A stretch of 64,000 nucleotides of DNA from an uncultured Holophagales bacterium (GTDB lineage Bacteria; Acidobacteriota; Thermoanaerobaculia; Multivoradales; UBA5704). How positions within the stretch are numbered: position 1 is the first letter of the stretch; every line of letters begins with the position of its first letter. Shown piece by piece: positions 7,795 through 60,300 of this stretch. A program made the position numbers and the translations under genes. Under the pieces are notes generated by a model that was not told the origin of the DNA, did not search any database, and saw nothing but the letters and a program-made list of their open reading frames with translations. Location of the stretch: assembly GCA_963842525.1 (NCBI GenBank), contig CAWJGT010000020.1, forward strand, positions 1-64,000. The letters are read 5' to 3'.

Positions 7795-8119
7795 CGCCTA
7801 TCTCCTGGATATCGTGATCGCGGCCCGTAAGCTGCTGCGGTACACGGAGAGCTTGTCCTGGGACGAATTCCGGGATACGCCGCTCATTCAGGATGCCGTC
7901 GTCCGCAATCTGCAGGTGATCGGGGAGGCGGCCAACAGAATTTCCGAGGCCTTTCGAGCCGCCCATGCCGAAATCCCCTGGAGGCAGGTGGTCGGCATGC
8001 GCAATCGGCTAGTGCACGAATACTCCCGGGTTGACATGGAGAAAGTCTGGGAGACAGTACGGGACGACATCCCGGATCTGCTCCGACAGATCGAGCCGCT
8101 GGTCCCGCCCGAGGGGTAG
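7781..8119 (+). CDS. HEPN (DUF86) ribonuclease toxin, HepT-like
   Basis: ATG at 7781 overlaps the MNT gene; [14 protein letters not shown] and MRNRLVHEY (Rx4HxY) motifs. Confidence 0.88.
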
Positions 8120-22862: not shown

Positions 22863-23033
22863 TCCCCTGGGACGGCAAACGGACCGGGTTGACTCCCGCT
22901 TCGTTCCTGCGCACTCCTGGGGCGATTCTGCTCATGCGTCCCCGAATGGGGGGCTGGCGGCACTGTTGGGAGTGGTGCGGACGGCTCTCGTTGGCCCAGA
23001 ATGGGTCGAGAGCCGAGCCCCAGGAGGGATCGC

Positions 23034-23336
23034 ATGGTTTGCCCTGTGTGTGGGTTGGAGTCGGTGGAGGGGATTTGCGGTTGCTTCGAGTCGGATCCGG
23101 CGCTGGCCGATGAGGCCGGGGCCGGAGCAGAGGATGGCATCTTCCTGCCCCTTGTCGCGAGCGGGGACGTGGTTTTCTTCTCCAAGGTGACGTCGCGCCT
23201 GGAGGCGATGGGGATCGCGTGGTTCGTGCAGGAAGAAGAGTCGGTGGCGGTGATCTACGCCGCGGCGGAACGGCTGGACGAGGCGCAGGCGGTGGTCCAG
23301 GACCTCAGCCTCGTCGGAGCGGGCGCCAGCTCCTAG
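23034..23336 (+). CDS. Small protein with N-terminal CxxC Zn-knuckle and DUF2007-like domain
   Basis: AGGAGG RBS at 23022; MVCPVCG; SRLEAMGIAWFVQ...IY...ERLDEAQAVV. Confidence 0.6.
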   Translation: MVCPVCGLESVEGICGCFESDPALADEAGAGAEDGIFLPLVASGDVVFFSKVTSRLEAMGIAWFVQEEESVAVIYAAAERLDEAQAVVQDLSLVGAGASS

Positions 23337-27323: not shown

Positions 27324-27813
27324 CCACGGGACCCTGGACGCTCCCTGCGGTGGCTCACGGTGGTCCCGCGGCGCCGGCAGGTTTCACCACGGGACCAGGG
27401 ACGTTCCCTGCGGTGGCTCCCAGTGGTCCCGCGGCACCGGCAGGTCTCACCGCGGGACCATAGACGTTCCCTGCGGTGGCTCACGGTGGTCCCGCGGCAC
27501 CGGCAGGGTTCACCACGGGACCATGGACGCTCCCTGCGGTGGCTCCCAGTGGTCCCGCGGCACCGGCAGGTTTCACCACGGGACCAGGGACGCTCCCTGC
27601 GGTGGCTCCCAGTGGTCCCGCGGCACCGGCAGGGTTCACTACGGGACCATGGACGCTCCCTGCGGTGGCTCCCAGTGGTCCCGCGGCACCGGCAGGGTTC
27701 ACCACGGGACCCTGGACGCTCCCTGCGGTGGCTCCCAGTGGTCCCGCGGCACCGGCAGGAGCCACCACGGGACCATGGACGCTCACTGCGGTGACTCGCA
27801 ATGGTCCCGCGGC
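27324..27813. repeat. Tandem array of ~7.8 copies of a 63-bp unit (3 x 21-bp subunits) with internal inverted repeats
   Basis: Units start at 27324, 27387, 27450, 27513, 27576, 27639, 27702 and 27765; consensus CCACGGGACCATGGACGCTCCCTGCGGTGGCTCCCAGTGGTCCCGCGGCACCGGCAGGGTTCA. Confidence 0.95.
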
Positions 27814-39500: not shown

Positions 39501-42357
39501 GGGAGAGGGGAGTCGCGAGAGTCAGATGCTCCAGCGCTTGCGGATGTCCTCCCCCCTCTCCCGGGGGGCTGGGAGTGCGGATGGGAGAGGGGGGCCGGGG
39601 GGGTGAGGGACTTTGCCTTGCCCGAGCTGCCGGTCCAGTACGGGGACTTCGCGGTCTGGCAGCGGGAGTGGCTGCGCGGCGAGGTCCTCGATCGCCTGCT
39701 CGCAGCGTGGCGCGAAAGGCTCGTGGGGGCGCCGCCGGCCATCGAGCTGCCGACCGACCGGCCGCGCCCGCCCGTCCAGGGCACCCGCGGCGGTAACGCG
39801 CTCGTCCGCCTCGGCCAAGAGACCTCCGCCGCCCTGGCCGCCCTCGCGCGGGCGGAAGGGGCGACCCCGTTCATGGTCCTCCTCGCCGCCTTCCAGGCTC
39901 TGCTCCAGCGCCTCGGCGGGCAGGACGACCTCGTGGTCGGCACACCGGTCGCCGGGCGCGGCCGGGAGGAGCTGGAGGGGCTGATCGGCGTCTTCATCAA
40001 CGCCCTTCCCCTGCGCACCGACCTGTCGGGCCGGCCATCCTTCCGCGAGCTGCTGCGGCGGGTCCGCGAAACGGCGCTCGACGCCTATGCCCTCCAGGAC
40101 CTCCCGTTCGAGAAGCTCGTCGAGGAGCTGCACCCGGTGCGTGACCTCTCCCGGGCCCCGATCTTCCAGACCATGCTCATCCTGCAGAACGCGCCCCTGG
40201 GGCCGCTGGAGCTGCCCGGGCTCGCTCTCGAGACCCAGCCGGTCGACAACGGCACCGCCAAATACGAGATGCTTCTCTCGCTGGCCGAAGAGCGGGAAGA
40301 GGTAGCCGGCACCCTCGAATACAGCGCCGACCTCTTTGACTACGCCACGGCCGAGCGCCTAGCCCGCTATTTCGGTACCCTGCTGGGCGAGGCGATTGCC
40401 GATCCTGTCCGCCCGGTCCTCCGCCTGCCGCTCCTGTCCACGGTGGAGCGCGAGCAGCTCCTGGCCGACTGGTCTCTCGGCCCGACTCTGGAGCCGTCCA
40501 GCGCCTGCCTGCACGAGCTGTTCGAGGCGCGGGCGGATGCTGCGCCGGGGTCGGTGGCGCTCTCCTGGGCCGGCCGGGACGTGACCTGCGGCGAGCTGGA
40601 CGCCCGGGCCAATCAGCTTGCGCGCCACCTGCGGGAGCTGGGCGTCGGACCGGAGGTGCGTGTGGGCATCTGCCTGGAGCGCTCTCCCGAGATGGTCGTG
40701 ACCATCCTGGCGGTCCTCAAGGCGGGAGGAGCGTACGTGCCGATGGAGCCAGGTCATCCTGCCGCACGGCTGGTTCTGATGGTGGAGGACACGGCCATGC
40801 CGGTGCTCCTCGCCCGCCGCGGGCTGGCCGCCTCGCTGTCGGTGACCGGCGACAGGGGCGTCCGGGTCGTCGATCTGGAGGAGGACCGACAAACGATCGA
40901 GAGCCGGCCGGCGTCCCGTCTTGCTCCTCTGGCAACGCCCGGGAAATCTGGCCTTACGTCCTCTACACCTCGGGCTCCACCGGTGTGCCCAAGGGGGTGG
41001 CGATCGCGCACCGGAGCGCGGCAGCCCTCGTGCGCTGGGCCCGCAGCGCGTTCCAGCCGGACGAGCTGGCCGCGGTGCTCGCCTCGACCTCGATCACGTT
41101 CAACCTCTCGGTCTTCGAGCTGTTCGCGCCGCTCGCCGCCGGAGGGCGGGTCGTGCTGGTCGAGAACGCCCTTCGGCTTGCGGAGCTGTCTGGAGCCGAG
41201 GGGGTAACTCTGGTGAATACCGTACCGTCCGCCATGACCGAGCTGGTGCGTATGCGGGCCGTTCCAGCCGCGGTGCGGGCGGTGGCTCTTGCCGGAGAGC
41301 CGCTGCGGCGGCGTCTGGCCGCGGACCTCCACGAGCTTGGCGTGGCGCGGGTCCTCAACCTCTACGGCCCCTCGGAGGCCACCACCTACTCGACCTTCGC
41401 CGAGGTCGGGCCGGGAGACGCGGCGGAGCCGTCCATCGGCCGGCCGATCGCCGGCACCCGGGCCTACCTGCTGGACCGGGAGCTGGAGCCGGTGCCGGTC
41501 GGAGTGCCGGCCCAGATCTGCCTGGCCGGCGAGGGCCTGGCCCGCGGCTATCTGGGCCGGCCGGACCTCACCGCGGAGCGCTTCCTGCCCGATCCATTCT
41601 CTGGGGAAGCGGGAGGCCGGCTCTACCGGACGGGCGACCTGGCGCGCTGGCGGCCGGACGGCGATATCGAATTCCTGGGGCGCTTCGACCACCAGGTGAA
41701 GGTGCGCGGGTTCCGCATCGAGCTGGGCGAGATCGAGGCGGCGCTCGTTCGCGAGCCGGAGGTCGCCGAGGCTGCTGTGGTCGTGCAGGAAGATGCGGGA
41801 GGCCGGCGGCTGGTGGCCTGCCTCGTCCCCGCGTCCGGGGCCGAGGATCTGGACCTTGGCCGGCTGCGCAGCGCCCTGCGGACCCGTCTGCCGGAGCCCA
41901 TGGTGCCCGCGGCCTTCGCCGTGCTTCCTGCACTGCCCCTCACTCCCAACGGCAAGATCGACCGCCGTGCCCTCGCTGGACTGGCCGAGACGTCCGCGGC
42001 CCCCGCCCGGTCGACCGCGAGGGAGCCGGAGGCTCCGAGGACGAGCTCGAAACCTGGCTGGTCGAGGTCTGCGCCGATCTTCTCAACATCGAGCAGGTGG
42101 GAATCCACGACAACTTCTTCGACCTCGGGGGGCATTCGCTCCTGGCCATGCAGCTCGTCGGCCGCCTGCGGGAGGAGTGGGGCATCGCCCTGCCGCTCCA
42201 GGCGGTGTTCAACGCGCCCGACCTTGCGAGCCTGGCCGACCGGATCGCCGAGGTCGAGCTGCTCTCGGCGGACGACGACGAGCTGGCGGAGATGCTCTCG
42301 GAGCTCGAAGGCCTCTCGCCCGAGGATCTGAAAGTCCTTCTCGCGGGAAAGGGATGA
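33566..42357 (+). CDS. Hybrid PKS/NRPS gene B: KS-(no AT)-ACP-C-A(Pro)-PCP-C-A(Ala-like)-PCP (frameshifts near 38390, 40945, 42035)
   Basis: KS-ACP near-duplicate of gene A; HHIVTDGWS and HHIAADGWS; hand-read A codes DVQFIAHVVK and NLFNAALTYK; acidic C-terminal docking-like tail. Confidence 0.9.
35011..35038. repeat. Intragenic REP-like element, family B, post-KS region of gene B
   Basis: TGCGGGCGAGACGCCCGCGGTCCCAGGG; translated AGETPAVPG; same site as 29335. Confidence 0.8.
35390..35444. repeat. Intragenic REP-like element, family A, KS-ACP linker of gene B
   Basis: TCCCCCCTCTCCC..GATGGGAGAGGGGGACAGGGGGTGAGG; translated SPLSREAGGRWERGTGGE. Confidence 0.9.
37122..37177. repeat. Intragenic REP-like element, family A, C-A linker of gene B
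   Basis: CCCCTCACCCCCCGACCCCCTCTCCCATC..CGGGAGAGGGGG; translated PHPPTPSPIAPPAPGRGG. Confidence 0.9.
39457..39609. repeat. Intragenic REP-like doublet, family A, C domain loop after HHIAADG
   Basis: Inverted arms CCCCTCACCCCCGGCCCCTCTCCCATCCGCACTC / GAGTGCGGATGGGAGAGGGGGGCCGGGGGGGTGAGGG; read in frame. Confidence 0.92.
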
Positions 42358-45300
42358 GCTTCACCCTGCCGCTCTCGCCAGGCCAGCGGGGCCTCTGGTT
42401 CCTGCATCGCCTGCATCCGGACAGCTCGGCCTATCACCTGGCCCTGGCGTCGCGGATCCTCAGCGCGATGCCGGCGGAGGCGATCCGTGGCTTCTTCCAG
42501 GAGCAGGTCGACCGCCACGAGGCCCTGCGCACCACGTTCCCTCTCGAAGGCGACGAGCCGGTCCAGCGCGTGGCCGATCCCTCCGAACACACCGAGTTGG
42601 CGTTCGAGGAGATCGACGCCACCGGATGGAGCGAGGCCGCTTTCCGGGAACGTCTGGAGCAGGAGGCGTGGAAGCCGTTCGATCTGGAGCGCGGGCCGCT
42701 GTTCCGTGTCCAGGTCTTCCAGCGGGTGAGCGAGCGGGTGCTTCTGGTCGTGGTGCATCACATCGTGGTGGATTTCGGGTCGTTCTACGGGATGCTGAGC
42801 AGCCCTCTCCCCCTGGCCCCCTCTCCCGCAGGAGCGGGGGAGGGGGAACGGCTCCAATACCGGGATTTCCTGCGCTGGCAGGAAGAGATGCTAGGGGGGA
42901 AAACGGGGGAGGAGCTGTGGGCGTTCTGGCGGGAGCGGCTGGCGGGATTGCCGGTGCTGGAGCTGCCAACGGACCGGCCGCGGCGCACGGGTGTCCCGGA
43001 GCGGGGCGGCAGCCGCTGGCACGAGATCGGGCCCGAGGTGGTGCGGCCGCTCAAGGCGCTGGCGCGCTCGCAGGGAGGGACGCTCTATGTGGCTCTTCTG
43101 GCGGGGTTCCAGGCGCTTCTTTCTCGCTACACGGGGCAGACCGATTTCGCGGTGGGCTCGCCCGCGGCCGGCAGGCCGAAGGGCTTCGCCCGGACGATGG
43201 GCTACTTCACGAATCCGCTCGCGGTGCGGGCGGATCTCTCCGGCGACCCGTCTTTCCTGGAGCTGCTCGGCCGTGTCCGCGCCCGGGTCTCCGAGGCTCT
43301 GGACCACCAGCACCTACCCCTGCCGGTCATCGTCGAGCGTCTACGTTTGGAGGCGTTCCGGACGCTTTTCGTTTTCCACCGGGACCCCTCGGGCCTGGAG
43401 GGGATGGTGGGCTTCGCGCTCGGCGAAGGGGGAGGTCTGCTGCGCTGGGGCGATCTGGAGCTGGAGCCGGTGGCCCTGCCGCCGCGGGCGGCACAGTTCA
43501 ACGTGACCCTGGCGGCGGGAGAGCGGCGGGGGAATCTGGGCCTCCAGCTCGTGTACAGCGCGGACATCTTTGACGCTTCGACCGCAGGGCGCTGGCTGGA
43601 GCATCTTGCCGTGCTCCTCGAAGCCGCAGCGGCCCAACCAGAGATGCCGCTCCGGGAGCTGCCGCTGTTGACCGCGTGGGAGAGGCAGCAGGTCCTGCTG
43701 GAGGTCAACGAGGCGAGCGAGATCGATCTGCCCTGGTCCCGTCTGGAGGAGGGATTCGAACGGCAGGCAGACCGGACGCCGGAAGCGGTCGCGGTGATCG
43801 ACGGCGACAGGCGGATCACCTACCGCGAGATGCGGGATCGTGTGATCGCGCTGGCCGAGTCACCTGAGCCATCTGAACGGGCAGGTGGTGGGGGTGAGGA
43901 TGCCCCGGAACGTCGAGATGGTGGCGACCCTGCTCGGAGTCCTGAAAGCAGGAGCCACCTACCTGCCGCTCGACCCATCGTATCCAGAGGAACGAATCAA
44001 CTTTCTCCTGGAGGACTCGGGGGCCTGTTCTGTGCTTCAGAGCACCAACGACGTTCCCCCTCTCCCGGCGGTGGGGGGGCGATGGGAGAGGGGGCCAGGG
44101 GGTGAGGTCGCCTACCTCATCTACACCTCCGGCTCCACCGGCCGTCCCAAAGGCGTCGCCATCGAGCACGCCAGCGCCGTCCGCCTCGTCGCCTGGGCCG
44201 GCAAGACCTACTCCCCCGAAGAGCTTTCCGGCGTCCTGGCCTCGACCTCGATCAGCTTCGACCTCTCCATTTTCGAGATCTTTGTCCCCCTCTCCTTCGG
44301 CGGGACGGTGATCCTGGCTGACAACGCCTTGGCGTTGCCTACCCTCCCGGCTGCCGGTGAGGTGACGCTGATCAACACGGTCCCTTCGGCCATCGCCGCC
44401 CTGCTGGACCTCGGGCCGCTGCCGCCACAGGTGCGGACGGTCAACCTGGCTGGCGAGCCGCTGCGGCGCTCGCTGGCGGATCGGGTGCTCGCCACCGGCG
44501 TCCGGCTCTGGGACCTCTACGGCCCCTCGGAGGACACGACCTATTCGACGGGCGCGGAGGTCCGGGCCGGCGATCCGGACGAGCCCTCGATCGGCTGGCC
44601 CGTAGCGGGATCGCGGGCCTACGTCGTCGATGCTGTGCTCCAGCCCTTGCCGGTCGGTGTCCCTGGGGAGCTGTGCCTGGGTGGAGGAGGGCTGGCGCGG
44701 GGGTACCTGGACCGGCCGGATCTGACGGCCGAACGGTTCGTGCCCGATCCGTTCTCCGGCGGAAGGCTCTACCGGACAGGCGACCTGGCCCGGAGACGGC
44801 CGGACGGAAACCTCGAATACCTGGGCCGGCTGGACCACCAGGTCAAGATCCGGGGGTTCCGCATCGAGCCGGGGGAGATCGAAGCGGCGCTGCTGTCCCA
44901 CCCTGGGGTGCGCGAAGCGGTCGTGGTGGCGCGTGACGAGGCCCTGGTGGCCTACGTCGCGCTGACCTCGGAGACCCCCGATCTGGCGGCGTACCTGCGC
45001 TCCCGCCTGCCTGCGCCCTTCGTGCCATCGGCCTTCGTGGTGCTGCCGGCCCTGCCCCTCACACCCAACGGCAAGGTGGATCGCAAGGCACTTCCTGCGC
45101 CGGAGCGGATGGGAGCGCAGACCGTCGAGGAGCCGGTCGGTCCGGTTGAAGAGGCGCTCGCCGGAATCTGGGCCGAGGTCCTCGGCCTTGATCAGGTGGG
45201 CCGGCACGAGAGCTTCTTCGAGCTGGGCGGTCATTCGCTGCTGGCGGTCCAGGTAGCGTCGCGCGTGCGCCGCGTCCTCGGCCGCGAGATCCCCCTGACT

Positions 45301-48300
45301 GACATCTTCGAGGCGCCCACGGTCGCCACACTGGCGAAGCGGCTCGGCGATGGGCTGGGGGCGGCACCCTCGCCGCCGCCGCTCCTGCCGGCTGACCCGG
45401 AGCTTCGCGCCGCGCCCGCGCCGCTCTCTTTCGCCCAGGAGCGGCTCTGGTTCCTCAACCGGCTCGATCCCGGCTCCGCCGTCTACAACATGCCCGCAGC
45501 GGTTCGCCTGACAGGGGATCTCGCCGCGTCCGCGCTCGGCCGCGCGCTCGCCGAGATCGTCCGCCGCCATGGAGCGCTGCGTGCCGTCTTCCACCCCGGC
45601 GAGGAGGGACCGGTGCAGGTGGTCTCGAAGGCGGGTTTCCCGCTGCCGTGGATCGATCTCACAGAGCTGGTTCGAGAGGTCGAGCCGGAGGCCCGGCGGA
45701 TCACCCGGGAGGAGGCCTCGCGGCCCTTCGATCTGGAGGCGGGGCCGGTCTTCCGCGCCATGCTCTTCCGGCTGGGCCCTGGGGACCACCTGCTCCTGGT
45801 CAACCTCCACCACATCGTCAGCGACGGCTGGTCCCTGGGCCTCCTCGTCCGCGAGCTGACGTTTCTCTACGACGCTTTCCGCGAAGTCTCTGCCTTCTCC
45901 CTTGCCGGAGCTGCCGGTCCAGTATGCCGATTATGCCCGCTGGCAGCGGAGCTGGCTGGAGGGCGAGGTCCTGACCTCCGAGCTGTCCTGGTGGCGCGAG
46001 TCCCTGGCCGGCCTGCCGGAAAGGCTCGATCTGCCTACCGACCATCCCCGCCGGGCAGGGATGGGGACGCGGCGCGGAGCCAGGCGGCCCGTGCGGCTCG
46101 GCACCAGCCTGACGCGACAGATCACCGATCTGTCCCGCCAGGAGGGCGCCACGCCGTTCATGGTGGTGCTTGCCGGCTTCCAGGCCCTGCTGGGGCGCTG
46201 GGCCGGTCAAGACGATCTGGCGGTCGGCAGCCCGATCGCCGGCCGGACGCGGATCGAGGTGGAGAACCTGGTCGGGCTCTTCGTCAAAACGCTGGTCCTG
46301 CGAGGAGACCTGCGCGGTGACCCTGCCGTCCGCGAGCTCCTGGCCCGGACGCGGCGGACCGTGCTGGCCGCCCACGAGCACCAGCATCTCCCGTTCGAAA
46401 AGCTGGTGGAGGAGCTGGCACCGGCGCGGGAGCTGGGGAGGACCCCGCTGTTCGAGGCGATGCTGGCCTTTCAGACCGCCTCTCCCGGCGCTCCCGAGCT
46501 GCCCGGCCTGGAGGTCGAGGTTGTGCCGGTCGAGACAGGGACGGCGAAATTCGACCTCCTCCTGGACCTGACCGAGCACGCCGGCAAGCTGGCGGGCTGG
46601 CTCGAATACGACGCCGGCCTGTTCGAGGCGCCAACAGTCGATCGCCTGCTGGGGCATTTCGAGGCGCTGCTGTCCGGCATGGTGGCCGCCCCTGGAGACA
46701 AAGTCCACGACCTGGCGCTGCTATCCGAGGTCGAGAGACATCAACTGCTGGCGGAGGCGAACGACCAGGGGGCGGCTGAGCCGCGCTGGGCGTTGCTCCA
46801 CGAGGGCTTCGAGCAGCAGGCGCAACGCACGCCGGATGCAGTGGCGGTCGTCTGGGGCGAGGAGAGGATCACCTACCGCCATCTGAACGAAAGCGCCGAC
46901 CGGCTGGCCACAGAGCTGCGAAGTCGAGGAGCCGGCCCGGAGAGGATCATCGGGATCTCCCTCCCGCGTACCCCCGAGATGATCGTGGCCCTGCTCGCCG
47001 TGCTCAAGGCTGAAGCCGCCTATCTCCCCCTCGATCCGTCCTATCCGCCGGACCGGATCGCATTCCTGCTCGCGGACGCTGGTGTGGACCTCCTCATTGG
47101 CAGCCCCGTAGGGGCGGCCGGAATTAGCCCGGGATTTCAATCCCGGGAATCGGGCGCATCCCCAAATCTCCAGAGCCCCGCCAGGGGCGACAGGAATCCG
47201 GCCGGCGAGCCCCTGCCGCCCCTAACGGGGCTGGTGGATGGGGGTGGCTTTCCCTTCCGGGCCTGAAGGCCCGGGCTAATTCCGGCCGCCCCTGCGGGGC
47301 TAGCTCGCCTACCTCATCTACACCTCCGGCTCCACCGGCCGCCCCAAAGGCGTCGCCATCGAGCACGCCAGCGCCGTGCGCCTCGTCGCCTGGGCCGGGG
47401 AGACCTACTCGCCCGAAGATCTCTCCGGCGTCCTCGCCTCCACCTCGATCAATTTCGACCTCTCGATCTTCGAGATCTTCGTCCCTCTCTCTTTCGGAGG
47501 GACGGTCATCCTGGCCGAGAACGCCCTCGCCCTGCCCACCCTGCCCGCGCGGGGAGAGGTGACCCTGCTCAACACGGTCCCTTCCGCCCTCGCCGCCCTG
47601 CTGGACCTCGGGCCGCTCCCGCCGTCGATCCGCACGGTCAACCTGGCTGGCGAGCCGCTGCGGCGCGGGCTTGCCGAGCGGGTCTATCGGAGGGGGCGGC
47701 GGGCGTGGAGCGGCTGTGGAACCTCTACGGCCCGTCCGAGGACACGACCTATTCGACCGGCTCGCTCGTCGAGCCGGGCTTGGCCGGGGAGCCCGCGATC
47801 GGCTGGCCGGTGGCCGGCTCGCGGGGCTATGTGGTCGACGCTTCGTTGCGGCTCCAACCCCCCGGCGTTCGCGGGGAGCTGTGTCTGGGCGGGGGAGGGT
47901 TGGCGCGGGGCTACATGGGCCGGCCGGAGCTGACGGCGGAACGGTTCGTGCCCGATCCGCTCTCCGGCGAGCCGGGCGGGCGCCTCTATCGGACGGGAGA
48001 CCTGACCCGCAGGAGGCCGGACGGGGCTCTCGAATACCTGGGCCGGCTGGATCACCAGGTCAAGATTCGGGGGTTCCGGATCGAGCCGGGGGAGATCGAG
48101 GCGGTGCTGCTGTCCCATCCCGAGGTGCGCGAGGCAGTGGTGGTGGCTCGGGAAGGGGCTCTGGTGGCCTACGTCTCGCTCACTTCGGAGGGTCTGGATC
48201 TGGCGGCGTACCTGCGCTCCCGCCTGCCGGCTCCCTTCGTGCCCTCGGCCTTCGTGGTGCTGCCGGCTCTGCCCTTGACCCCCAACGGCAAGGTGGACCG

Positions 48301-51300
48301 CAAGGCTCTGCCGGCGCCGGAGAGGATCGGGCAGAGGATCTTCGAGGAGCCGGTCGGACCCGTCGAAGAGGCTCTCGCCGAGGTCTGGACCGATGTCCTC
48401 GGCCGTGACCGTGTGGGCCGGCACGAGAGCTTCTTCGAGCTGGGAGGGCATTCGCTGCTGGCCACCCGGGTGCTGTCCCGGATCTCGCGCCGGTTCGGCG
48501 TGGATCTGCCGTTGGGTGCGCTCTTCGAATCGCCGACCGTGGCGGCGCTGGCCGGCAGGATCGCGGCCGCCGGTGGAGACGCAGCGCCGCCGCTGCGGCC
48601 TGTGCTCGTTCCACACGAGGGGCGACAGGACCTGCCGCTCTCCTTCGCCCAGCAGCGGCTCTGGTTCCTCGACCAGCTCCAACCCGGCTCGGCGGCCTAC
48701 AACATGCCCGGAGCGGCCTTCCTGGAGGGACCGCTCGCGCCGGCCGCGCTGGCCGCGAGCCTCACTGCACTCGTGGCGCGGCACGAGGCTCTGCGCACGC
48801 GCTTCGCCGAGCGCGACGGTCGTCCGGTCCAGATCATCGATCCGCCGCAGCCGGTGGAGCTGTCCATGGTCGAGGCTTCCGAGGAAGAGGCGTACACACT
48901 GGTCCAGCGCGAAGCGGCGCGCCCCTTCGATCTCGGCCGCGGTCCCCTTCTGCGTGCCGGCCTGGTACGGCTCGACCCTGAGCGCCACCTGCTGTGGCTG
49001 GTGCTCCACCACATCGTCGCCGACGGCTGGTCGCTCGGCGTTCTGATAGGCGACCTGGCGGCTCTGTACGCAGGGCTCTCCCTCCCCGAGCTGCCGGTCC
49101 AGTACGCCGACTACGCGATCTGGCAGCGGGAGCAGCCTGCCGACCTGGACTGGTGGAAGGAGCGCTTGGCAGGTGCGCCGGAGACCTTGGAGCTGCCGGC
49201 GGACCGTCCGCGCCCAGCCGTGCGCACCCAGCGCGGCTTCCAGGTGAGGACGTCGCTGCCGCCCGATCTGGCTGACGGCCTGCGTGACCTCTGCCGCCAG
49301 CGTGGAGCGACCCTGTTCCTGGGCCTGCTGGCCGCCTTCGAGACCCTGCTCCTCCGCTACACCGGCCAGGAGGATCTGCTGGTGGGATCGGCGGTGGCGA
49401 ACCGCAACCGGCCGGAGGTGGAGGGGCTGATCGGCCTCTTCGCCAACACTCTGGTGCTGCGCGGCGATCTGGCGGGTGATCCGTCCTTCGCCGAGGCTCT
49501 GGACCGGGCGCGGGAGGGCACCCTCAGCGCCTTCGCCCACCAGGACGTGTCGATCGAGAAGCTCGTCGAGGAGCTGCATCCTGGCCGGGAGTTGGGACAG
49601 AACCCGCTCTTCCAGGTGGTCATCGTCCTCCAGAACGCGCCCATCCGCCTGGAGCTGCCGGGGCTCACGCTGCGCCGGGTCGAGGTGGAGACCGGGACCG
49701 CGAAGTTCGACCTCACCCTGGAGCTGACCGAGAGCGCAGAGGGGTTGACCGCCGTCTGGGAGCTGAGCAGCGACCTGTTCGAGCCGGCGACAGGGCGGCG
49801 GATGGCGGCTCATTTCGAGAGCCTCGTGCGGAGCGCGGTGGCAGCGCCCGACCAGAGGCTTTCTGATCTGACTCTGCTGGGTGAGGACGAGCGCCGGCAG
49901 CTCTTGTTCGAGTGGAAGCTCGGCTCCTACGGCAGCGCCGCTGGAGCCGCTGGAGATACCGGTCCACCGCCTGTTCGAAGAGCAGGCCCGGAGCACGCCG
50001 GACCGGATCGCGCTCGTCGCGGGCAACCTGGAGCTGACGTATGGCGAGCTGGACGCGCGGGCCAACCGCCTGGCCCGTCATCTCCAGGACCTGGGCGTCC
50101 GGCCCGAGACCCTGGTGGGCGTGCTCCTCGAACGGTCACCGGAAATGATTGAGGCGTTCCTGGCGATCCTCAAGGCCGGCGGCGCCTATGTGCCGCTCGA
50201 TCCCTCCTGGCCGGAGGAGCGCCGGGCCGAGCTGATCGATGAGGCTGGCGTCCGGGTCATTCCCTGGGACCGCGGGCGTCCCGCCCGCACCATCCAAAAA
50301 AATGCGGGCGGGACGCCCGCGGTCCCAGGGGTGGGACTTCTGGCTTATGCGATGTTCACTTCGGGCTCGACCGGCCGGCCGAAGACGGTGGGCATCGAGC
50401 ACCGGAGCATCGTGCGGCTTGTGCGCGGCGCGGACTGGGCGGATCTCGGGCGGGATCAGGTCTTTCTCCAGCTTGCTTCGCCTGCCTTCGACGCCGCGAC
50501 TCTGGAGATCTGGGGCGCTCTCGCCAATGGCGGACGGCTGGCACTTTTCCCGCCAGGAGCCCCGTCGGTCGAGGACCTGGGAGCGGCCCTGGAGAGGCAC
50601 GGGATCACCACCCTCTGGCTCACCGCGGGTCTCTTCCATCAGGTCGTCGAGAGCAGGATCGACATCCTCCGCGGCGTGCGGCAACTCCTGGCTGGCGGCG
50701 ATGTGCTGTCGCCCGAGGCGGTCGACCGGGTGGTCGTCGAGCTGCCCGGCTGCCGGATGATCAACGGCTACGGTCCGACCGAGAACACCACATTTACCTG
50801 TTGTCACGAGGTCCGGGGGCCTCTTTCCGGCCGCACGGTGCCGATCGGCCGGCCGATCGCGGGGACGACGGTCTACGTTCTGGACGCCCATCTCCAGCCG
50901 GTCCCGGAGCTCGTTCCCGGGGAGCTTCTGGCGGGCGGCGAAGGTCTGGCCCGGGGCTATCTGGGCCGGCCCGACCTGACCGCCGAGCGCTTCGTGCCCA
51001 GCCCCCCCTTCGAGGATGAGCCGCCGGGTGCGCGCCTCTATCGCACGGGCGACCGGGTGCGTTGGTCGCCCCGTGGCGAGCTGGAGTTCCTGGGGAGGCT
51101 GGACCGGCAGGTCAAGATCCGGGGCTTCCGCGTCGAGCCCGCCGAGATCGAGGCCGTGCTGGCGCGCCATCCCGGTGTGTCCCAGGCTGCCGTGATCGTG
51201 GTCGACGATACGGCGGACCGGCGGCTCGTGGCCTGTGTGGTCCCCGCGGGCGAGGATCTCTCTGGGCTGCGCGATTGGCTGGCAGACCGGCTGCCGGCGT

Positions 51301-54300
51301 ATCTCATCCCCTCCCTGGTCACACTTCCCGATCTTCCGCTCACGCCCAACGGCAAGGTGGACCGGGCAGCGCTCCGAGGCCGTCTGCCCGAGGTCGAGCC
51401 GCAGAGCGGTTATGTCGCACCGCGCACTCCGGTCGAGGAGCTGCTGGCCGGCGTCTGGGCCGAGGTGCTCGGCGTCGAGCGCATCGGGATCCACGACGAC
51501 TTCTTCGAGCTGGGTGGGCACTCCCTGCTCGCCACGCGAGTCGTCTCCCGGGTGCGGGCGGCGCTGGACGCCGAGGTGCCGCTGGCCGCGCTGTTCGAGA
51601 CCCCGACCGTGGCAGGGCTGGCCCGCCTGATCGAGGAACGGCGCGTCCGGCAGAGCCCTCTCCCCCTGGCCCCCTCTCCCGTGCGTCCCCCGTCCGCCCG
51701 CCCCGAACGGGAGAGGGGGAACGAGAGCGGGCTGGGTGGTGGCGCCCCTCTCCCGCTCGGGGTGGGGGGTGGTGGCCGTGCGGGGGAGGGGTCGGGGGAG
51801 GGGGGCGAGGCCCCTCTCTCCTTTGCCCAGGAGCGGCTCTGGTTCCTGGACCGGCTGGAGCCCGGCTCGGCCACCTACAACTTGCCGGTGGCGGTGCGGC
51901 TGCGCGGGAACCTGGACATCTCCGCCCTGGAGAGGAGCCTGGGCGAGATCCTTCGCCGCCACGCGGCGCTGCGGACCACCTTCCACGAGTCCGGTGATGG
52001 ACCCATCCAGGTCGTTGCCCCGCCGGAGCCGTTCCGCCTGCCCGTCGACGATGCGCCCGGCAGCATGGAGGAGGAGGCGCGCTGTCCCTTCGATCTGGAG
52101 GCGGGACCGATCTTCCGCGCCCATCTCTTCCGGCTGGCTCCCGGGGACCACCTGCTCCTGGTCAATCTCCACCACATTGCCAGCGACGGCTGGTCCATGG
52201 GCATCCTCGTCCGCGAGGTGGCGGCTCTCTACGGCGCCTTCCGCGAAGGCCGGCCGTCGCCTCTGCCCGAGCTGCCGGTCCAGTACGCCGACTATGCCCG
52301 TTGGCAGCGGAGCTGGCTTTCCGGCGAGGCCCTGGCCGCCGAGCTGGCCTGGTGGCGAGAGACCCTGGCGGGCCTGCCCGAGAGGCTCGACCTGCCTACC
52401 GACCATCCGCGCCGAGGCGGAGCGGAGACGCGAAGCGGAGCCAGACGGCCGGTGCGGCTCGGCAGCGAGCTGACGCGGCAGATCGCCGGCCTGTCCCGCC
52501 GGGAGGGCGCCACGCCGTTCATGGTGGTCCTCGCCGCCTTCCAGACTGTTCTGGGGCGCTGGGCCGGCCAGGAGGATCTGGCCGTGGGCAGCCCGATCGC
52601 CGGCCGGACGCGGATGGAGGTGGAGGATCTGATCGGGTTCTTCGTCAATACGCTGGTCCTGCGGGGAGACCTGCGCGGCGATCCCACCGTTCGCGATCTG
52701 CTCGTCCGGACGCGGCGCATGGTGCTGGCGACCCATGAGCACCAGCACCTCCCGTTCGAGAAGCTGGTGGAGGAGCTGTCGCCTGTACGGCAGCTCGGGA
52801 GGACCCCCCTGTTCGAGGCGATGCTGGCCTTCCAGACCGCCTTGCCCGGGGCACCCGAGCTTCCAGGTCTGGAGGTGGAGATCGTGCCGGTCGATCCGGG
52901 GGTGGCGAAATTCGATCTCCTCCTGGACCTGACCGAGCGTGGCGGCGAGCTGGTGGGCTGGCTGGAGCACGACGCCGACCTGTTCGAGGCGCCGACCCTC
53001 GATCGTCTGCTGGGGCATTTCGAGGCGCTGCTGTCCGGCATGGTGTCTTCTTCTGGAGAGAGGGTCTTCGGCCTGCCGCTTCTATCCGCGGCGGAACGCC
53101 ACCAGATCCTCGAGTGGAATGCGAGCGCAGTAGCCCGGCCCGCGGAGGCTTCGATCCCTGCCCTGTTCCTGGAGCAGGTGGACCGGACCCCTGAGCAGGA
53201 GGCTGTCCGCTTCGCCGGCGAGAGCCTCACCTACCGCGATCTCGAAGAAAGATCGAGCCGGCTCGCCCGCCACCTGCGCCGGCTCGGAGTCGGACCGGAA
53301 GTCGTGGTGGGGATCGCCCTGGACCGTTCCCTGGAGCTGATCATCGCGCTCTACGCCACACTCAAGGCGGGCGGCGCCTACCTGCCTCTCGATCTCTCCC
53401 ATCCGGACGAGAGGCTTGCCTTCCTCCTGGCCGAGGCCGGCGCACCGGTCGTCCTGACCCTTGCGGAGCACGCGCCGCGCTTCGCCGGCTCCCGGGCCGC
53501 GGTCGTCCGCCTCGACGCCGAACGCTCCGTGATCGAGGCGGAGAGCACTGACCGTCCACCCCTGGAGATCCGGGGCGATCATCTCGCCTACGTCATCTTC
53601 ACCTCGGGCTCGACCGGGGCTCCCAAGGGAGCGATGAACACCCATGCGGCGATCGCCAACCGGCTGCTGTGGATGCAGGAAGCCTATCGGCTGGACGCGT
53701 CGGACCGGGTGCTGCAGAAGACGCCGTCCACCTTCGACGTTTCGGTCTGGGAATTCTTCTGGCCTCTGATCGCGGGTGCGACTCTGGTGATCGCCCGGCC
53801 GGAAGGACACCGCGATTCTTCGTACCTCCTGCGGACGATCCACGACGAGGCGATCACGGTCCTCCACTTCGTCCCGTCCATGCTGCAGGTCTTCCTCGAC
53901 GAGCCGGGGGTGGAGGAGGCGGCCAGCCGTCTGCGGCAGGTGATGGCGAGCGGCGAGGCGCTCCCGGCCGACCTTGCAAGTCGCTTTGCGGAGCGCCTGC
54001 CGGGAGTGCGGCTGCACAACCTCTACGGACCGACCGAGGCCGCCGTGGACGTCACCTCGTGGACGGTCGAGGCCGGGGAGCCGGCGGTCTCCCTCGGCCG
54101 GCCGATCGCGAACCTCGAGATCCATATCCTGGACCGCTCTTTCCGGCCGGTGCCCGTTGGCGTGGCCGGGGAGCTGTGCATCGGCGGCGCCGGTCTCGCC
54201 CGCGGCTATCTCGGCCGTCCGGATCTGACGCCGGAACGCTTCGTCCCCGCTCTGAGCGGGGCTCCTGGAGCGCGCCTGTACCGCACCGGCGACCTGGCCT

Positions 54301-57300
54301 GTTTCCGTCCGGACGGCAGGATCGAGTACCTGGGGCGCATCGACCACCAGGTCAAGATCCGCGGGCTCCGCATCGAGCCGGGGGAGATCGAGGCCGCGAT
54401 CCTCGGCCATTCAGTCGTCAAAGAAGCGGTGGTGGTGGCCCGCGAGGACCGGCCGGGCGACCGCCGCCTGGTGGCCTATCTGGTGCCGGGACAGGGGGAA
54501 TTGCGCATCGAGGATCTGCGGGCCTCCCTCCGCGCGCGGCTCCCCGAGCACATGGTGCCGTCGGCCTTCATGGTGCTGGAAGCCTTGCCGTTGACCGCGA
54601 ATGGCAAGCTCGACCGCCGGGCTCTCCCAGCTCCGGAGGGAAGACCACGGGCCGCGAGTGTCCCGCCGCGCACCGAGGCCGAGCAGGCCATCGCCGGCGC
54701 CTGGCGCGAGGCGCTCGGGCTGGAGGCGGTCGGGGTCGACGAGAGCTTCTTCGATCTGGGCGGCCATTCGCTCCTGGCCACGCGGGTGCTCTCCCGGATC
54801 CGGGAGGCGTTCCGGGTGGACCTGCCGCTGCGCGCCCTCTTCGAGGAGCCGACCGTGGCCGGTCTCGCCCGGCGGATCGAGGCGGCCGTCCAGGGGCCAC
54901 ATCTCCCGAGCCTGCCGATCGTTCCGATTCCGCGCGTGGGTGCCTTGCCGCTCTCCTTCGCACAGCAGCGGCTCTGGTTCCTCGATCAGCTCGAGCCCGG
55001 CGCCCCCCTCTACAACATCCCCGCGGCCCTGCGCGCCACCGGACCGCTCGACGTCCCTGCCCTGACGCACGCCCTCGGCGAGGTCGGCCGTCGTCACGAG
55101 GCCCTGCGGACGACCTTCGCCTCGGTGGAGGGGGCGCCGGTGCAGGTCGTCCAGCCGCCGTCCGCCTTCTCTCTGCCGGTCGTGGACCTCTCCGGTCTCG
55201 CAGAGCCTGAAGGGCCGGTGCTCGGGCTCGCGGCGAAAGAGGCCCTCCGGCCCTTCGACCTGGCGCAGGGACCGGTCTGGCGCGCTCTCTGCCTGCGGCT
55301 CGGCCCGGCCGACCACGTCCTCCTCGTCACCATGCATCACATCGCGAGCGACGGCTGGTCGATGGGCATCCTGGTCCGCGAGGTGCTGACACTCTACGGA
55401 GCGCATTTACCCCTGCCCGAGCTGCCGGTGCAGTACGCCGACTACGCCCTCTGGCAGAGAGACCGGCTCCAGGGCGATCTCCTCCAGAATGAGCTGGCGT
55501 ACTGGCGCGAACAGCTCGCCAGCCTGCCGGCGCTGGAGCTGCCGACCGACCGGCCGCGCCCCGCCATCCGCAGCCATCGCGGCAGCAACCGACCGGTGGA
55601 GCTGGGGGCCGACCTGACGGCCGGCCTGCGCCGTCTCGCCCGCCGCGAGGGGACCACGCTCTTCATGATCCTGCTCGCCGCTTTTGAGGCCCTGCTCGCA
55701 CGGCACAGCGGCCAGCGCGACCTGGCGGTGGGGAGCCCCATCGCGGGCCGGGAGCACCTGGAGATCGAGGGGCTGATCGGCTTCTTCGTGAACACCCTGG
55801 TCCTGCGCGGCGACCTGTCCGGAGATCCGCCGTTCCGCACCCTGCTCGCCCGGGCGCGCGAGACCGTCCTCGCGGCCCACCTCCATCAGGAAGTCCCCTT
55901 CGAGAGGCTGGTCGAAGAGCTGGAGCCGGACCGGAGCCCCAGCCGCACCCCCCTGTTCCAGGTGATGCTCTCGCTCGGCAATGCGCCGCGCGACATCCCC
56001 GAGACGCGGGGCCTGCGGCTGTGGCGCATGGATGCGGCCGAGATCCTCCCTCCGGTCGCCCGCTTCGATCTGAGCCTGGCTCTCGAAGAGCGGGAGGGTG
56101 GGCTCTCGGGTGTGTGGGAGCACAGCGCCGAGCTGTTCGACGCCACCACGATCGCCCGCATGGCGGGCCATCTGGAGAGGCTGCTCGCGGCTGTGGTCGC
56201 TGATCCCGGGCTCCGCCTCTCCGAGCTGCCGCTGCTCGGCGAGGTGGAGCGGCACCAGCTCGCCCTGGCGTGGAACGACACGACCGCGCCGGCTCCTCCG
56301 GACCTCCTCGTGCACCAGCTCTTCGAGGCCCAGGCGGAACGGCAACCCGAGGCGATCGCCTTGCGGCAGGGGAGCGAGGTCCTGACGTACGGCGAGCTGG
56401 CCGCCCTCTCCCATCGCCTGGCCCACCACCTCCGGCGCCTTAGGGTCCGTCCCGAGGAGCCGGTCGGGGTCTGCCTGGAACGGGTCCCACTGCGCATCGC
56501 GGCTCTCCTCGCGGTACTCCAGGCCGGCGGCGTCTATCTCCCGCTGGACCCGGCCTATCCGCGGGCGCGCCGCGAGCTCATGCTGCGCGATTCCGGGGCG
56601 CGGGTGCTGCTGACCTCCGGATGGCTGGCGACGCTGGGCTGGCCTGTCCCCAGGGTCGTTCCGCTGGACGAGATCGGGGCGGAGCTGGCCGCCGAGAGCC
56701 TCCAGTCCGCCGGCCGGAGCCGTGCGGCCCGAGATCCTGGCGTACATCCTCTACACCTCGGGGTCGACCGGCACGCCGAAGGGAATCGGGGTCGACCACG
56801 CCGCCGCCGTCGATCACTTCACGACGATCGTTCGTGCCTACGGGCTCGTTCCCGAGGATCGGGTGCTGCAGTTCGGGGCGCCCGGCTTCGATGTCTCCCT
56901 GGAGCAGATCCTCCCCACGCTGGCAGCCGGGGCCACGCTGATCCTGCCGCGCAACGAGCTGGTCAGCCCCGGCGAGCTGTTCTCCGTGCCTCCCGAGAGC
57001 GAGGTCACCGTCGTCAATGTGCCGACGGCCTATTGGCAGCAATGGGTCGGCGAGCTCGCCGACGGGAGAGCGCTTCCAGACCGGCTGCGGTTCGTGATCA
57101 CCGGCGGCGAGGCCATGGCGCTCGAATCGGCGCGTCTCTGGGCCGCGCTCCCCGGCAGCGGGCGGGTTCCGATGTTCAATGGCTACGGTCCGACCGAGGC
57201 GGTCGTGACCGCTACGATCGTCCCTCTCGGAGGCGACGGTCCCGGCGCTCCGGCGACGGTGCCGATCGGCTGGCTGCTCGCTCGCCGCACCGCCTGGGTG

Positions 57301-60300
57301 CTCGACCATGACGGCCGGCTCATGCCGCCGGGAGCCCATGGCGAGCTCTGCCTGGGCGGCGTGCTCGCTCGCGGCTATATCGGGCGGCCCGACCTGACGG
57401 CCGAGCGCTTCGTGCCGCACCCGTGGGGCGAGCCCGGGGCGCGGCTCTACCGGACCGGCGACCTGGCGCGGTATCTCCCCGATGGGAATCTCGAGTTCCT
57501 GGGACGGCTGGACGAGCAGGTGAAGGTCCGCGGTTTCCGCATCGAGCTGGGGGAGGTCGAGGCGGTCCTGGCCAGCCATCCCGCGGTGCGGGAGGCGGTG
57601 GTCCTCGCCATCGCGGACGGCCAGGGGGGCCGCAGGCTGGCGGGATTTGTCGTTCCCATCCCGGACGCCGCGGTCGCGCCGGCCGATCTGCGCGAGCACC
57701 TCCGGGAGCGCCTGCCGGACTACATGGTCCCCGGCGCCTTCTCGGTCATGGAATCGCTGCCGCTCACGCCCCACGGCAAGGTGGACCGGCGAGCCCTGGC
57801 CCACATCGCCCCGACGCCCTTATTGGCCGGGGAGGAGCACGCGGCCCCACGCGGCCCCGTCGAAGAGATCGTGGCGGCCCTCTGGGCCGACGTGCTGGGG
57901 ACCGACCGGATCGGCCGTGGCGACGGGTTCTTCGAGCTGGGAGGCCACTCGCTCCTGGCGACCCAGGTGGTCTCGCGGGTGCGCAAGACCCTGGGGATCG
58001 AGATCCCCCTGCGGGCCCTCTTCGAGGCGCCCACCCTGAGCGGCTTCGCCGGGAGAGTGGCCCGGGAGATCGAGGCCGGAAGCCGGACTGCCGTGCCGCC
58101 GATCCCCTCCCTGCCAAGGCGCCCCGGCGAGCGCTTCCCCCTGTCCTTCGCCCAGCAGCGGCTCTGGTTCCTGGATCAGCTCGAGCCCGGCTCCGCGGTC
58201 TATAACCTGCCGCTCGCGATCGATCTTTTTGGGCCTCTCGATGTGTCTGCGCTCGCCCGCGCCCTGGCCACGATCGCACTCCGTCACGACGCGCTGCGCA
58301 CGACCTTCCCCGCCGAAGATGGCAACCCGGTGCAGGTCGTCGCGGAGCTTCGGCGTCCCGTGCTCCCGGTGATCGACCTGACCGGCGTCGAAGGAGCCGT
58401 GGACACGGTCGCCGGAGAGCTGGCCCGCCGGCCGTTCGACCTGGAACGGGGCCCTCTCCTGCGCGCGTGCCTCCTGCGGGTGGAGAAGGAAGCGCACCGG
58501 CTCGTCGTGAGCATGCACCACATCGTGAGCGACGGCTGGTCGGTCGGCGTGTTCGCCCGCGAGCTGAGCGCGCTGTACGAGGCCTTCCGGGCCGGCCGGC
58601 CCTCTCCGCTGCCCGAGCTGCCGGTGCAGTACCCGGCCTTTGCGGTCTGGCAGCGGCAGTGGCTCGCGGGCGAGGTTTTGGACACGGAGCTGGCGTACTG
58701 GCGCGAGCAGCTTCACGGCCTGCCGCGCCGCCTGGAGCTGCCCGAGGACCGTGCCTGGAGGCGCCGGCGCGGAGCCGCGCGCGGAGGTCTCCGCCCGGTG
58801 GTTTTCTCCGAGGAGCTGGGGCGCCGCCTGCGAGAGCTCGCCCGCGCCGAGGGAGCGACGTCGTTCATGATCCTGCTGGCCGGCTTCCAGGCGCTCCTCG
58901 GCCGCTGCGCCGGGCAGGAGGATTTCGCCGTCGGCACCCCCGTCGCCGGGCGCTCCGCGGCCGAGCTGGAGGGGCTGATCGGCTTCTTCGTCAACACCCT
59001 GGTGCTCCGCGCCGACCTGGCAGGGGAGCCGGGTTTCCGTGCCCTCCTGCGGCGGGTTAGGGAGCGTGTTCTGGCGGCGCAGGCCCACCAGCACCTCCCG
59101 TTCGAGAAGCTGGTGGAGGAGCTGGAGCCCACGCGAAGCCTGGAGCACGCCCCCCTGTTCCAGGCCATGCTCGCCTTCCAGAACACGCCCCGCGAGACGT
59201 TGGACCTGCCCGGCCTCCTCACCATTCCGGTCGATGTCCATACCGGGACGGCCAAGCTCGATCTCCTCCTGTCCCTGGAGGAGGTCGACGGCCGCATCGC
59301 CGGCGCCCTGGAGCACGACGCGGACCGCTTCGACGCCACCACGATCGACCGCCTCCTGGCGTGGTACGAGGCGCTCCTCGCCGCCGCGGTGGCCGCTCCG
59401 GAACGGCCGGTCTTCGACCTGTCGCTGCTGTCTGCCGCGGAGAGTCACCAGGTGCAGGTGGAGTGGAACGACCGCGGAGGGGTCGAGCCCGGCTGGACGC
59501 TCCTGCACGAGGGCTTCGAGCGACAGGCGCAGCGCACGCCCGAGGCGATAGCCCTGGTCTGGGGTCAGGAGCGCCTCACGTACCGCGACCTCAACGAGAA
59601 GGCTGACCGCCTGGCCGAGGAGTTACGCCGCCGCGGAGCCGGTCCGGAGCGGGTGGTCGGGATCTCCCTCCCGCGCACCCCCGAGATGATCGTCGCCATG
59701 CTCGCCGTCCTTAAATCCGGGGCCGCCTATGTCCCCCTCGATCCATCCTACCCACCGGACCGGATCGCGTTCATGACCGACGACGCAGGTGTGAGCCTGA
59801 TCCTCACCTCCGAGGGTGGATTGGGGGACAAGCCCCAAAGGGGCGCCGGCATAAAGCCTGGGGTTTCAACCCCAGGTCGGCGGCTTGAGGATTCAGGCTG
59901 CCCCTATCCTGGGGTTGAAACCCCAGGCTTTATGCCGGCGCCCCTTCGGGGCTCCGAGGTCGCCTACCTCATCTACACCTCCGGCTCCACCGGCCGCCCC
60001 AAGGGCGTCGCCATCGAGCACGCCAGTGCCGTCCGTCTCGTCGCCTGGGCTTTGGAAGCTTTTTCTCGCGAAGAGCTGTCCGGTGTCCTCGCCTCGACCT
60101 CGATCAACTTCGACCTGTCGATCTTCGAGATCTTCGTCCCCCTCTCCTGCGGTGGGGCTGTGATCCTGGCCGACGATGCCCTTGCCCTGCCATCCCTGTC
60201 CGCGATGGGGGAGGTGACCCTGGTCAACACGGTGCCGTCCGCCATGGCCGCGCTGCTCGACCTGGGGCCGCTCCCACCCTCGATTCGCACCGTCAACCTG

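Follow-up and report, generated by a model that had tools for sequence, protein, structure and literature searches.

We analysed a stretch of 64,000 nucleotides from an uncultured Holophagales bacterium (GenBank assembly GCA_963842525.1, contig CAWJGT010000020.1, positions 1 to 64,000; hereafter the window), which has a G+C content of about 70% and carries a hybrid polyketide synthase/nonribosomal peptide synthetase (PKS/NRPS) cluster that contains short palindromic DNA elements. The cluster lies on the plus strand from 27.9 kb to the end of the window and, as judged by Pfam, comprises two ketosynthase (KS) modules and ten adenylation (A) domains. In what follows, 'domain A1' to 'domain A10' denote these ten A domains and 'motif A1' to 'motif A10' the adenylation core motifs, all of which are intact in ten of the ten domains. 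Gene C, whose module 1 holds domain A4, starts at a true gene boundary with an ATGA overlap at 42352-42354. Motif A3 starts at the following positions.

32110, 37586, 40964, 44122 and 47319, plus strand: motif A3 of domains A1 to A5, in this order
50355, 53598, 56752, 59974 and 63268, plus strand: motif A3 of domains A6 to A10, in this order

Five of the ten A domains contain a palindromic element between motif A2 (LKAGxAYxPLD) and motif A3 (AYxxYTSGSTG), and the elements belong to three families, A, B and C (lengths in nucleotides, nt).

31836-32006: domain A1 (gene A), family A doublet made of a reverse unit, a spacer of ~40 nt and a forward unit, in frame; 83.3 and 79.3 bits
44049-44111, plus strand: domain A4 (gene C, module 1), family A unit; 71.4 bits with the covariance model
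47102-47301: domain A5, family C element of 200 nt with 45-nt arms, 89% complementary
50262-50330: domain A6, family B perfect hairpin with 28-nt arms, 100% complementary, and a 13-nt loop
59831-59953: domain A9, family C element of 123 nt with 46-nt arms, 98% complementary

A preliminary description of this DNA, made from the sequence alone, had reported elements in these same five domains, and all of them were found, each between motifs A2 and A3; the unit in domain A4, for which it gave a start at 44055, is there with the boundaries listed above. The doublet of gene A, which it assigned to the same segment, does lie within the A2-A3 stretch, but in a helix/loop further upstream, and it leaves the native strand in place. 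Domains A4, A5 and A9, which it called near-identical, deserve the term right after the site, where 85-88 of the first 90 nt are identical, but not beyond; over motifs A3-A5 they share 79-85% nt and 85-91% amino acid (aa) identity.

The unit of domain A4 is a hairpin, CCCCCTCTCCC / GGGAGAGGGGG, with the tail GGGGGTGAGG, and its in-frame reading is ..NDVPPLPAVGGRWERGPGGEV. Taking it for the right half of a doublet rests on a likeness of 12/13 nt to the doublet spacer and is uncertain, since P0001 and P0392 also have single units (P numbers denote homologous proteins and L numbers loci used for comparison). The element of domain A5 is an inverted pair of the Rfam motif Acido-Lenti-1 (47102-47147 on the minus strand, 47256-47301 on the plus strand; 51.2 and 45.7 bits, the gathering score being 37) around a structured centre of 108 nt, and a promoter and terminator scan around it found nothing. 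Domain A9 likewise holds an Acido-Lenti-1 pair (59831-59876 on the minus strand, 59908-59953 on the plus strand), which is open in one of the six frames, that of the host, while the hairpin of domain A6 is read in frame as PWDRGRPARTIQKNAGGTPAVPG.

Families and placement of the elements

The arms of family C correspond to Acido-Lenti-1 (RF01687) with five matches of 40.3-51.2 bits, namely all four arms in domains A5 and A9 and one from a third element, that at 29687-29813; the sixth arm stays below the gathering score at 28.6 bits. Every cell of the motif's two hairpins (8 bp and 5 bp) is paired, 76 of 76, and both sides change in 4 of the 13 pairs; the covariation score of the six arms, from three elements, was reached in 0 of 500 shuffles. 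In 2010 the motif was put forward as a probable small RNA that is not cis-regulatory (Weinberg et al., PMC2864571). Our matches resemble that family in score, in the two covarying hairpins and in the acidobacterial host; unlike it, all six arms sit inside PKS/NRPS coding sequence, not as free-standing small RNA genes but as inverted pairs that form palindromes of 123-200 nt, once in frame. This behaviour fits a mobile repeat of the REPIN kind, that is, an inverted pair of repetitive extragenic palindromic (REP) sequences, better than a free-standing small RNA gene. Acido-Lenti-1 was not found in 10 other Acidobacteriota loci.

Family A is built of units of ~60 nt, (CGTC)CCCCCTCTCCC, a loop of ~15-20 nt, GGGAGAGGGGG and the tail ACAGGGGGTGAGG, with CGTC standing directly before the stem in 4 of 11 aligned units. 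The covariance model found 12 strong units at 9 places in the window, 3 of these places being inverted doublets, and the sole place outside the PKS/NRPS genes is 27-92. Over 78 other loci (1.26 Mb) the same model matched only L072, itself a training row, apart from two weak matches. The sequence CCCCTCTCCC occurs 24 times against 1.3 expected, a count reached in 0 of 100 shuffles, and of the family B arm there are 4 copies where 0 are expected. Against Rfam, families A and B gave only sub-threshold microRNA-like hairpins, which we set aside as chance likenesses of long stems.

Besides the A2-A3 stretch, the PKS/NRPS genes carry elements at the following places, where C and T stand for condensation and thiolation domains.

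29335-29362, plus strand: single family B arm in KS-linker coding sequence, with a second copy at 35011-35038; encodes PAGGTPAVPGV, just before ADVAYTLQ
29687-29813: Acido-Lenti-1 pair of 127 nt in the post-KS linker, after YPFERQRYWIEP
35385-35448, plus strand: family A unit in the homologous post-KS linker of the second KS module, in frame
37120-37183, minus strand: family A unit in a C-A linker, in frame
39455-39612: family A doublet in the C3-C4 loop of a condensation domain, in frame
42800-42853, minus strand: family A unit in the homologous C3-C4 loop of the next condensation domain, in frame; 41.5 bits
51653-51809: family A units, one strong and one weak, in a T-C linker, in frame
60429-60599: family A doublet in the A5-A6 loop of domain A9, with frame and orientation as in the gene A doublet

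The two KS-linker arms of family B agree with the arms of the domain A6 hairpin at 28/28 and 27/28 nt, and an alignment to the PDB skips the A5-A6 insert of domain A9. Within 29600-30130 the first KS module and gene A appear to form a single gene, the T domain being in frame 1 and the KS in frame 2; the switch sits at the 127-nt Acido-Lenti-1 pair, and ATG 29890 lies inside the T domain. A repeat of another kind lies at 27324-27813, between a flavin-monooxygenase-like open reading frame (ORF) and the first KS: 7.8 tandem copies of 63 bp with 92% matches, each holding the inverted repeat CGGGACCA/TGGTCCCG and together offering one open frame that gives a 21-aa repeat.

Ten of the 12 PKS/NRPS inserts, among them 4 of the 5 at the A2-A3 site, are in frame and free of stops, the exceptions being those at 47102 and 29687, and all 12 are placed in loops or linkers (post-KS, C-A and T-C linkers, C3-C4 loop, A2-A3, A5-A6). 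The A2-A3 stretches make up ~5% of the 36-kb PKS/NRPS target and hold 5 of the 12 insert places (binomial p = 2e-4, post hoc). Each orientation of family A has its own reading, all forward units in ORFs giving ..WERGxGG. and all reverse units PHP..SP.., and the doublets of gene A and domain A9 use one frame. The peptide of the doublet also occurs in frame in 11 other database proteins, of which 3 are NRPS/PKS; the other hosts include a sulfatase, an HrpB-type helicase, two WGR proteins, YfhO and a semialdehyde dehydrogenase, and the doublet lies outside Pfam domains in 6 of the 6 non-NRPS hosts that have such domains. Across the element regions of the A domains Pfam reported AMP-binding only, so that the inserts, of 22-66 aa, encode no folded auxiliary domain.

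Elements so stable as RNA, from -74 to -119 kcal/mol (-73.7 with z = -11.7 for the domain A6 hairpin, -118.8 with z = -16.5 for the domain A9 element), with covarying stems and a position at domain or sub-domain borders, could conceivably be of use to the host, perhaps as mRNA structures on which ribosomes slow down at these borders or as embedded small RNAs, and 19 of the 21 residues of the element peptide are indeed conserved between domain A4 and P0392. We consider such a domestication highly improbable nonetheless: empty paralogues stand beside filled ones in one gene (L072, below), the family A doublet is found in unrelated proteins too, covariation would be expected just as much from recognition of the hairpin by a transposase, and the conservation of the A4/P0392 peptide equals that of its flanks (86-93%).

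The short linker and the independent gain of elements

We counted the residues from PLD(P) to (L)AY on the translations as the length of the A2-A3 stretch, with domain A7 as the comparator.

53361-53618, plus strand: native, element-free A2-A3 stretch of domain A7, 62 aa from PLD to LAY

Domain A10 (61 residues) and domains A3 and A8 are likewise of native length, and domain A2 is natively short with 47. The stretch measures 44 residues in domain A4, of which 22 are element-coded, 45 in domain A6 and 72 in domain A9, of which ~41 are element-coded, and only ~21 native residues are left in domain A5; in these four domains no more than 19-28 native residues follow PLD(P) before the element. The residue counts thus bear out the preliminary description in that the native segment is missing from the four gene C domains and intact at 53.4-53.6 kb. 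Its further proposal that the element replaces native sequence found no support in that form, since homologues with neither the segment nor an element, which it had itself named as the test, do exist. One is a module at 8170 of L072, a Holophagales metagenome-assembled genome (MAG) and the best genomic relative (62%), where the linker reads ARIVITEAGIEGAEGAEEPACQPVPESLAYLIYTSG and the DNA has no inverted repeat; empty short linkers also occur in P0236, in P0140 (residue 3330, with the IEHASAVRLVAWA signature) and in P0161 (2802), and L053 has four modules with 50-residue linkers and no repeats. The strongest evidence against replacement comes from within a single gene: the NRPS at L072:1700-14418 has five A domains that include two pairs of close paralogues, 85% and 87% identical in aa after motif A3, and in each pair one site is empty and the other filled, by a reverse family A unit (74 bits) in one pair and by a family-A-like hairpin in the other. 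Such empty and filled paralogues and homologues indicate that the short linker came first and that elements add to it. Short linkers are a minority but normal: from a pool of 1277 A domains, taken from giant multi-module NRPS that a search had ranked by summed score and not by kinship to the domain A4 clade, 452 without a recognisable motif A2 were excluded from the length counts, and of the 825 kept 106 are shorter than 60 residues by the measure applied to this pool and 576 are at 65-74.

Repeated independent gain, which the preliminary description had offered as one of two possibilities, is borne out, as the four gene C elements come from three families, their junctions and orientations differ, and other genomes give the same picture. 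The junctions of the family C copies in domains A5 and A9 do not match, the difference being 3 nt at the right end and 22 nt at the left; the copies are different subfamily members, both arms of each copy carrying one compensated stem variant; because this variant is shared within each element, divergence in place is hardly the source of the difference. Junctions of orthologues were compared at the protein level, through P0392 and P0001. P0392 is the orthologue of gene C module 1 (86% aa identity to the left of the site and 90-93% to the right) and has kept the domain A4 unit at the identical junction. Other proteins have at the A2-A3 site forward family-A-like units (P0001 twice, P0079, P0176) or reverse ones (P0023 twice, P0161, P0079), a doublet (P0393), other hairpins (P0140, and L019 with two different ones in two modules) or a family-C-like string (P0015), and intact proteins of 3400-5400 aa from other genomes bear such inserts in frame. 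Insertion at this site extends to further phyla: in Pseudomonas zanjanensis (L027:9780-13290) two adjacent modules carry one and the same REP pair with 25-nt arms, in frame and following LLNQF, within the A2-A3 stretch, and an MAG of Opitutaceae (L005) has another repeat in that stretch. Over the 78 loci, perfect stems of at least 14 nt were present in 3 of 167 A2-A3 windows and in 0/163, 0/169, 0/169 and 0/168 control windows.

Recurrence at one place could in principle reflect the DNA rather than the protein, if an existing hairpin or element or a G-rich tract directed elements to the site and one element attracted or replaced another. This would account for five events in one region of ~60 nt of paralogous domains and for the three other homologous positions that were hit twice, the post-KS linker (29687 and 35385) and the C3-C4 loop (39455 and 42800), both with different elements or element states in paralogous modules, and the A5-A6 loop (domain A9 and P0392). 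The empty linker of L072 is G-rich (GAGGGGGCGGAGGGGGCGGAGG), the NRPS genes are enriched in elements over the flank, and there are documented cases from other bacteria of REPs nested inside target palindromes (PMC3733652). Targeting of this kind seems unlikely to us all the same, given that the junctions in domains A5 and A9 do not coincide, that no common flank motif or target duplication was seen, that both orientations occur and that the gene A and Pseudomonas inserts lie at another sub-site of the A2-A3 stretch. A possible family A remnant beside the domain A9 element comprises just 8 nt and is too weak to count.

The identity profile across the site

Domains A4 and A5 are ~55% identical through the C domain and 60% over motifs A1-A2, rise to 81-93% from 29 nt before motif A3 to ~1140 nt after it, in the core of the T domain, and then return to ~55%.

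44107-45265, plus strand: high-identity tract of domain A4, against ~47304-48462 in domain A5; its left edge is the element site

The identity between domains A4 and A9 likewise jumps at the element site, and domains A5 and A9 are alike on both sides of it (65-83% and 73-98%). The A4/P0392 pair suggests that the left part evolves only ~2 times faster than the right, a gap in rate that does not by itself explain the jump, so that a conversion or exchange tract reaching from motif A3 to the T core is likely on these comparisons. The A5-A6 loop of P0392 (residues 702-756) carries a family A doublet that is absent from domain A4 (44560-44600), whereas domain A9 has one at this loop position, and the immediate flanks of the P0392 doublet resemble those of domain A9, a hint that gene conversion has copied sequence from one paralogous module to another.

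The preliminary description had raised a role of the site in recombination, and this idea fared only in part: the identity does jump exactly at the site, but domains A4, A5 and A9 form one clade on both sides (support 99/98 on the left and 100/99 on the right) and approximately unbiased (AU) tests within the trio gave p >0.05 (0.126, 0.089 and 0.051). On the right side the order within the trio is unstable, one analysis grouping (A5,A9) with 98/96 and another (A4,A5) with 87/90 and 98/97. A clear phylogenetic break lies further upstream, between the C domain and motifs A1-A2 (AU p = 5e-6 and 3e-5).

Natural exchange units in NRPS, as in swaps between McyB and McyC, extend from A3 to A9 (Baunach et al. 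2021, PMC8097286). The A4/A5 tract resembles these A-core units in starting at motif A3 and ending just past motif A10; it differs in that its left edge coincides with repeat insertions, whereas that paper says nothing of transposable or palindromic elements at breakpoints (the string 'transpos' occurs 0 times in its text). One might then suppose that the elements cause or guide the exchange of A3-A10 cores between modules and that the site marks the crossovers. In support, the tract fits the known units, the motif A3-A5 part of domain A9 is flanked by two elements with its similarity to domain A5 dropping after the second, and in P0392 a domain of the A4 type contains the A9-type doublet, whose immediate flanks are also A9-like. 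We give this little credence, as the elements at the junctions differ and so offer no homology for a crossover, the right end of the tract has no element, and the trio is a single clade on both sides. Moreover, because unrelated inserts end homology, a tract must end there, and no active role of the elements is needed.

A proposed reading as in-frame selfish repeats and the evidence against it

We favour, at a probability of roughly 60%, the reading that these are selfish repeats, inserted in frame in the manner of Rickettsia palindromic elements (RPEs) and retained at a permissive window between motifs A2 and A3. What we show is the anatomy of the site, the families and the frames they use, homologues both empty and filled, and the profile of identity along the modules; that the elements are mobile, that the enzymes tolerate them and in what order events took place we infer. 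Palindromic repeats of this Thermoanaerobaculia genome, akin to REPs or to MITEs (transposable elements of miniature size with inverted repeats), would have inserted many separate times into PKS/NRPS genes and persisted where the protein tolerates extra peptide, in inter-domain linkers and surface loops, of which the A2-A3 stretch would be the most tolerant. A native helix-strand segment would have been lost earlier in the A4/A5/A9 clade, and separately in domain A6, leaving a short linker to which elements were then added, each independently, with at least one (domain A4) inherited by the orthologue. Most inserts would be translated as filler rich in Pro, Gly and Arg, as RPEs are. Being non-homologous, the inserts would end the homology of paralogues, and the identity jump would arise because conversion or exchange tracts that homogenise the A3-to-T part stop at the site.

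Several observations weigh against this reading. No RAYT-type (REP-associated tyrosine; IS200/IS605-type) transposase was found among the 37 window ORFs scanned, no target-site duplication at any junction inspected, and no parent insertion sequence was seen, so that in spite of their inverted arms the elements do not qualify as MITEs. The domain A5 element has stops in 6 of 6 frames, the host frame changes across it and read-through would need at least two indels; with a frame shift of +1 across the 29687-29813 element, the sequence as it stands has its reading frame broken at two of the three Acido-Lenti-1 pairs (47102 and 29687). The surface-loop placement of the inserts is itself a prediction from alignment and the literature. 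Inserts are also denser in the PKS/NRPS genes, with 12 places in 36 kb against 1 place in the 28-kb flank (p = 0.006), an enrichment that a pure selection filter does not predict and that giant, linker-rich genes may explain. Finally, from 38.4 to 56.7 kb the NRPS genes contain ten or more one-base frameshifts, of which several fall in homopolymer runs and one inside the conserved motif A8 (GYRIE|PGEVE); the cluster may thus be dead, and 'tolerated by the enzyme' would then say little.

38390, ~40940 (two), ~42020, 43860, 45870, 47690, ~49930 and ~56690: one-base frameshifts in the NRPS genes
11923-14830, minus strand: split flank gene for a DUF11-repeat protein
18972-23190, plus strand: split flank gene for an nSTAND1-WD40 protein, SIR2_2-adjacent

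Read together, the frameshifts, the broken frames at two elements and the element density above that of the flank could mean that the whole is a decaying pseudogene cluster in which repeats accumulate unselected, the shared site being part coincidence and part inheritance. This is unlikely in our judgement. Neutral junk would spread evenly, whereas ten of the 12 inserts keep the frame without a stop and none is placed outside a loop or linker, and the core motifs of all ten A domains are intact; the large intact proteins of other genomes that carry such inserts in frame at this very site also argue against it. The two flank genes are split too, each continuing in a second frame, and P0392, from another assembly, likewise runs out of frame, so that these cases and the homopolymer shifts fit indel-prone assemblies, with real decay the less likely cause. 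Other flank genes include a GMP synthase (5869-7443) that is 90-95% identical to Thermoanaerobaculia proteins and defence-like genes, namely one with a HepT-like ribonuclease domain (7493-8119) and, at 18077-23190, one for an SIR2_2 protein beside that for the STAND NTPase-WD40 protein.

As retained selfish repeats, the elements represent a known phenomenon; the case is new and the mechanism is not. RPEs are selfish palindromes of ~150 bp found in frame in protein-coding genes (Ogata et al. 2000, as cited in the review PMC10969869), and the elements of the window share with them the existence of several palindrome families, the in-frame position in unrelated proteins, the translation as extra peptide, the size (~170 nt for the family A doublet) and the use of one frame for each orientation. 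They differ in that the host is a free-living acidobacterium of 70% G+C, that the sequences are unrelated, that the inserts of the window are concentrated in megasynthase genes and that different families hit one loop of paralogous domains. REPs and REPINs, which include GTAG- and CGTC-tagged families, some of them intragenic (Di Nocera et al. 2013, PMC3733652), are similar as short, dispersed hairpin units, often in inverted pairs, that occur inside genes without target duplication. A CGTC stands before the stem in 4 of the 11 aligned family A units, and the tag is not consistent. Unlike those elements, family A has the longer loop given above and a G-rich tail of 13 nt instead of loops of 4-5 nt and a CCA tail, and the ORFs scanned offered no RAYT gene to go with it. 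As for the place of insertion, interrupted A domains with a methyltransferase between a2 and a3 are active (TioN, MarQ), and engineered insertions keep adenylation (PMC11355689). These share the insertion window with our elements and demonstrate that large inserts are tolerated there with adenylation kept; they differ in being folded catalytic domains of a few hundred residues, not repeat-encoded filler. Our searches for palindromes in NRPS, intragenic REPINs and RPE loops found no paper on repeats in A domains, which, as subscription journals were not covered, does not prove absence.

The inserts amount to a natural tolerance map, marking the places in KS, C, A and T modules that accept 20-70 extra residues, with A2-A3 hit most, and this map is useful for choosing insertion and splitting points in NRPS. 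Acido-Lenti-1, an orphan family in Rfam, may prove to be a mobile palindrome of the REP type instead of a gene for a small RNA. For annotation there is a warning in that strings like PHPLSPSP.., ..WERGTGGE and GFxSRE in acidobacterial proteins are selfish DNA, not motifs, and indel-prone assemblies can make such clusters look broken. If the association with the ends of conversion tracts holds genome-wide, repeat biology would be linked to NRPS diversification. A bolder proposal, which we regard as quite unlikely, is that Acido-Lenti-1 and family A are REPIN-type mobile repeats with a preference for megasynthase genes in Acidobacteriota, which by supplying in-frame linkers and breaking homology at set sub-domain borders define the units (A3-A5, A3-T) that can pass from module to module through gene conversion and exchange; if it is true, selfish repeats help to shape the evolution of NRPS specificity.

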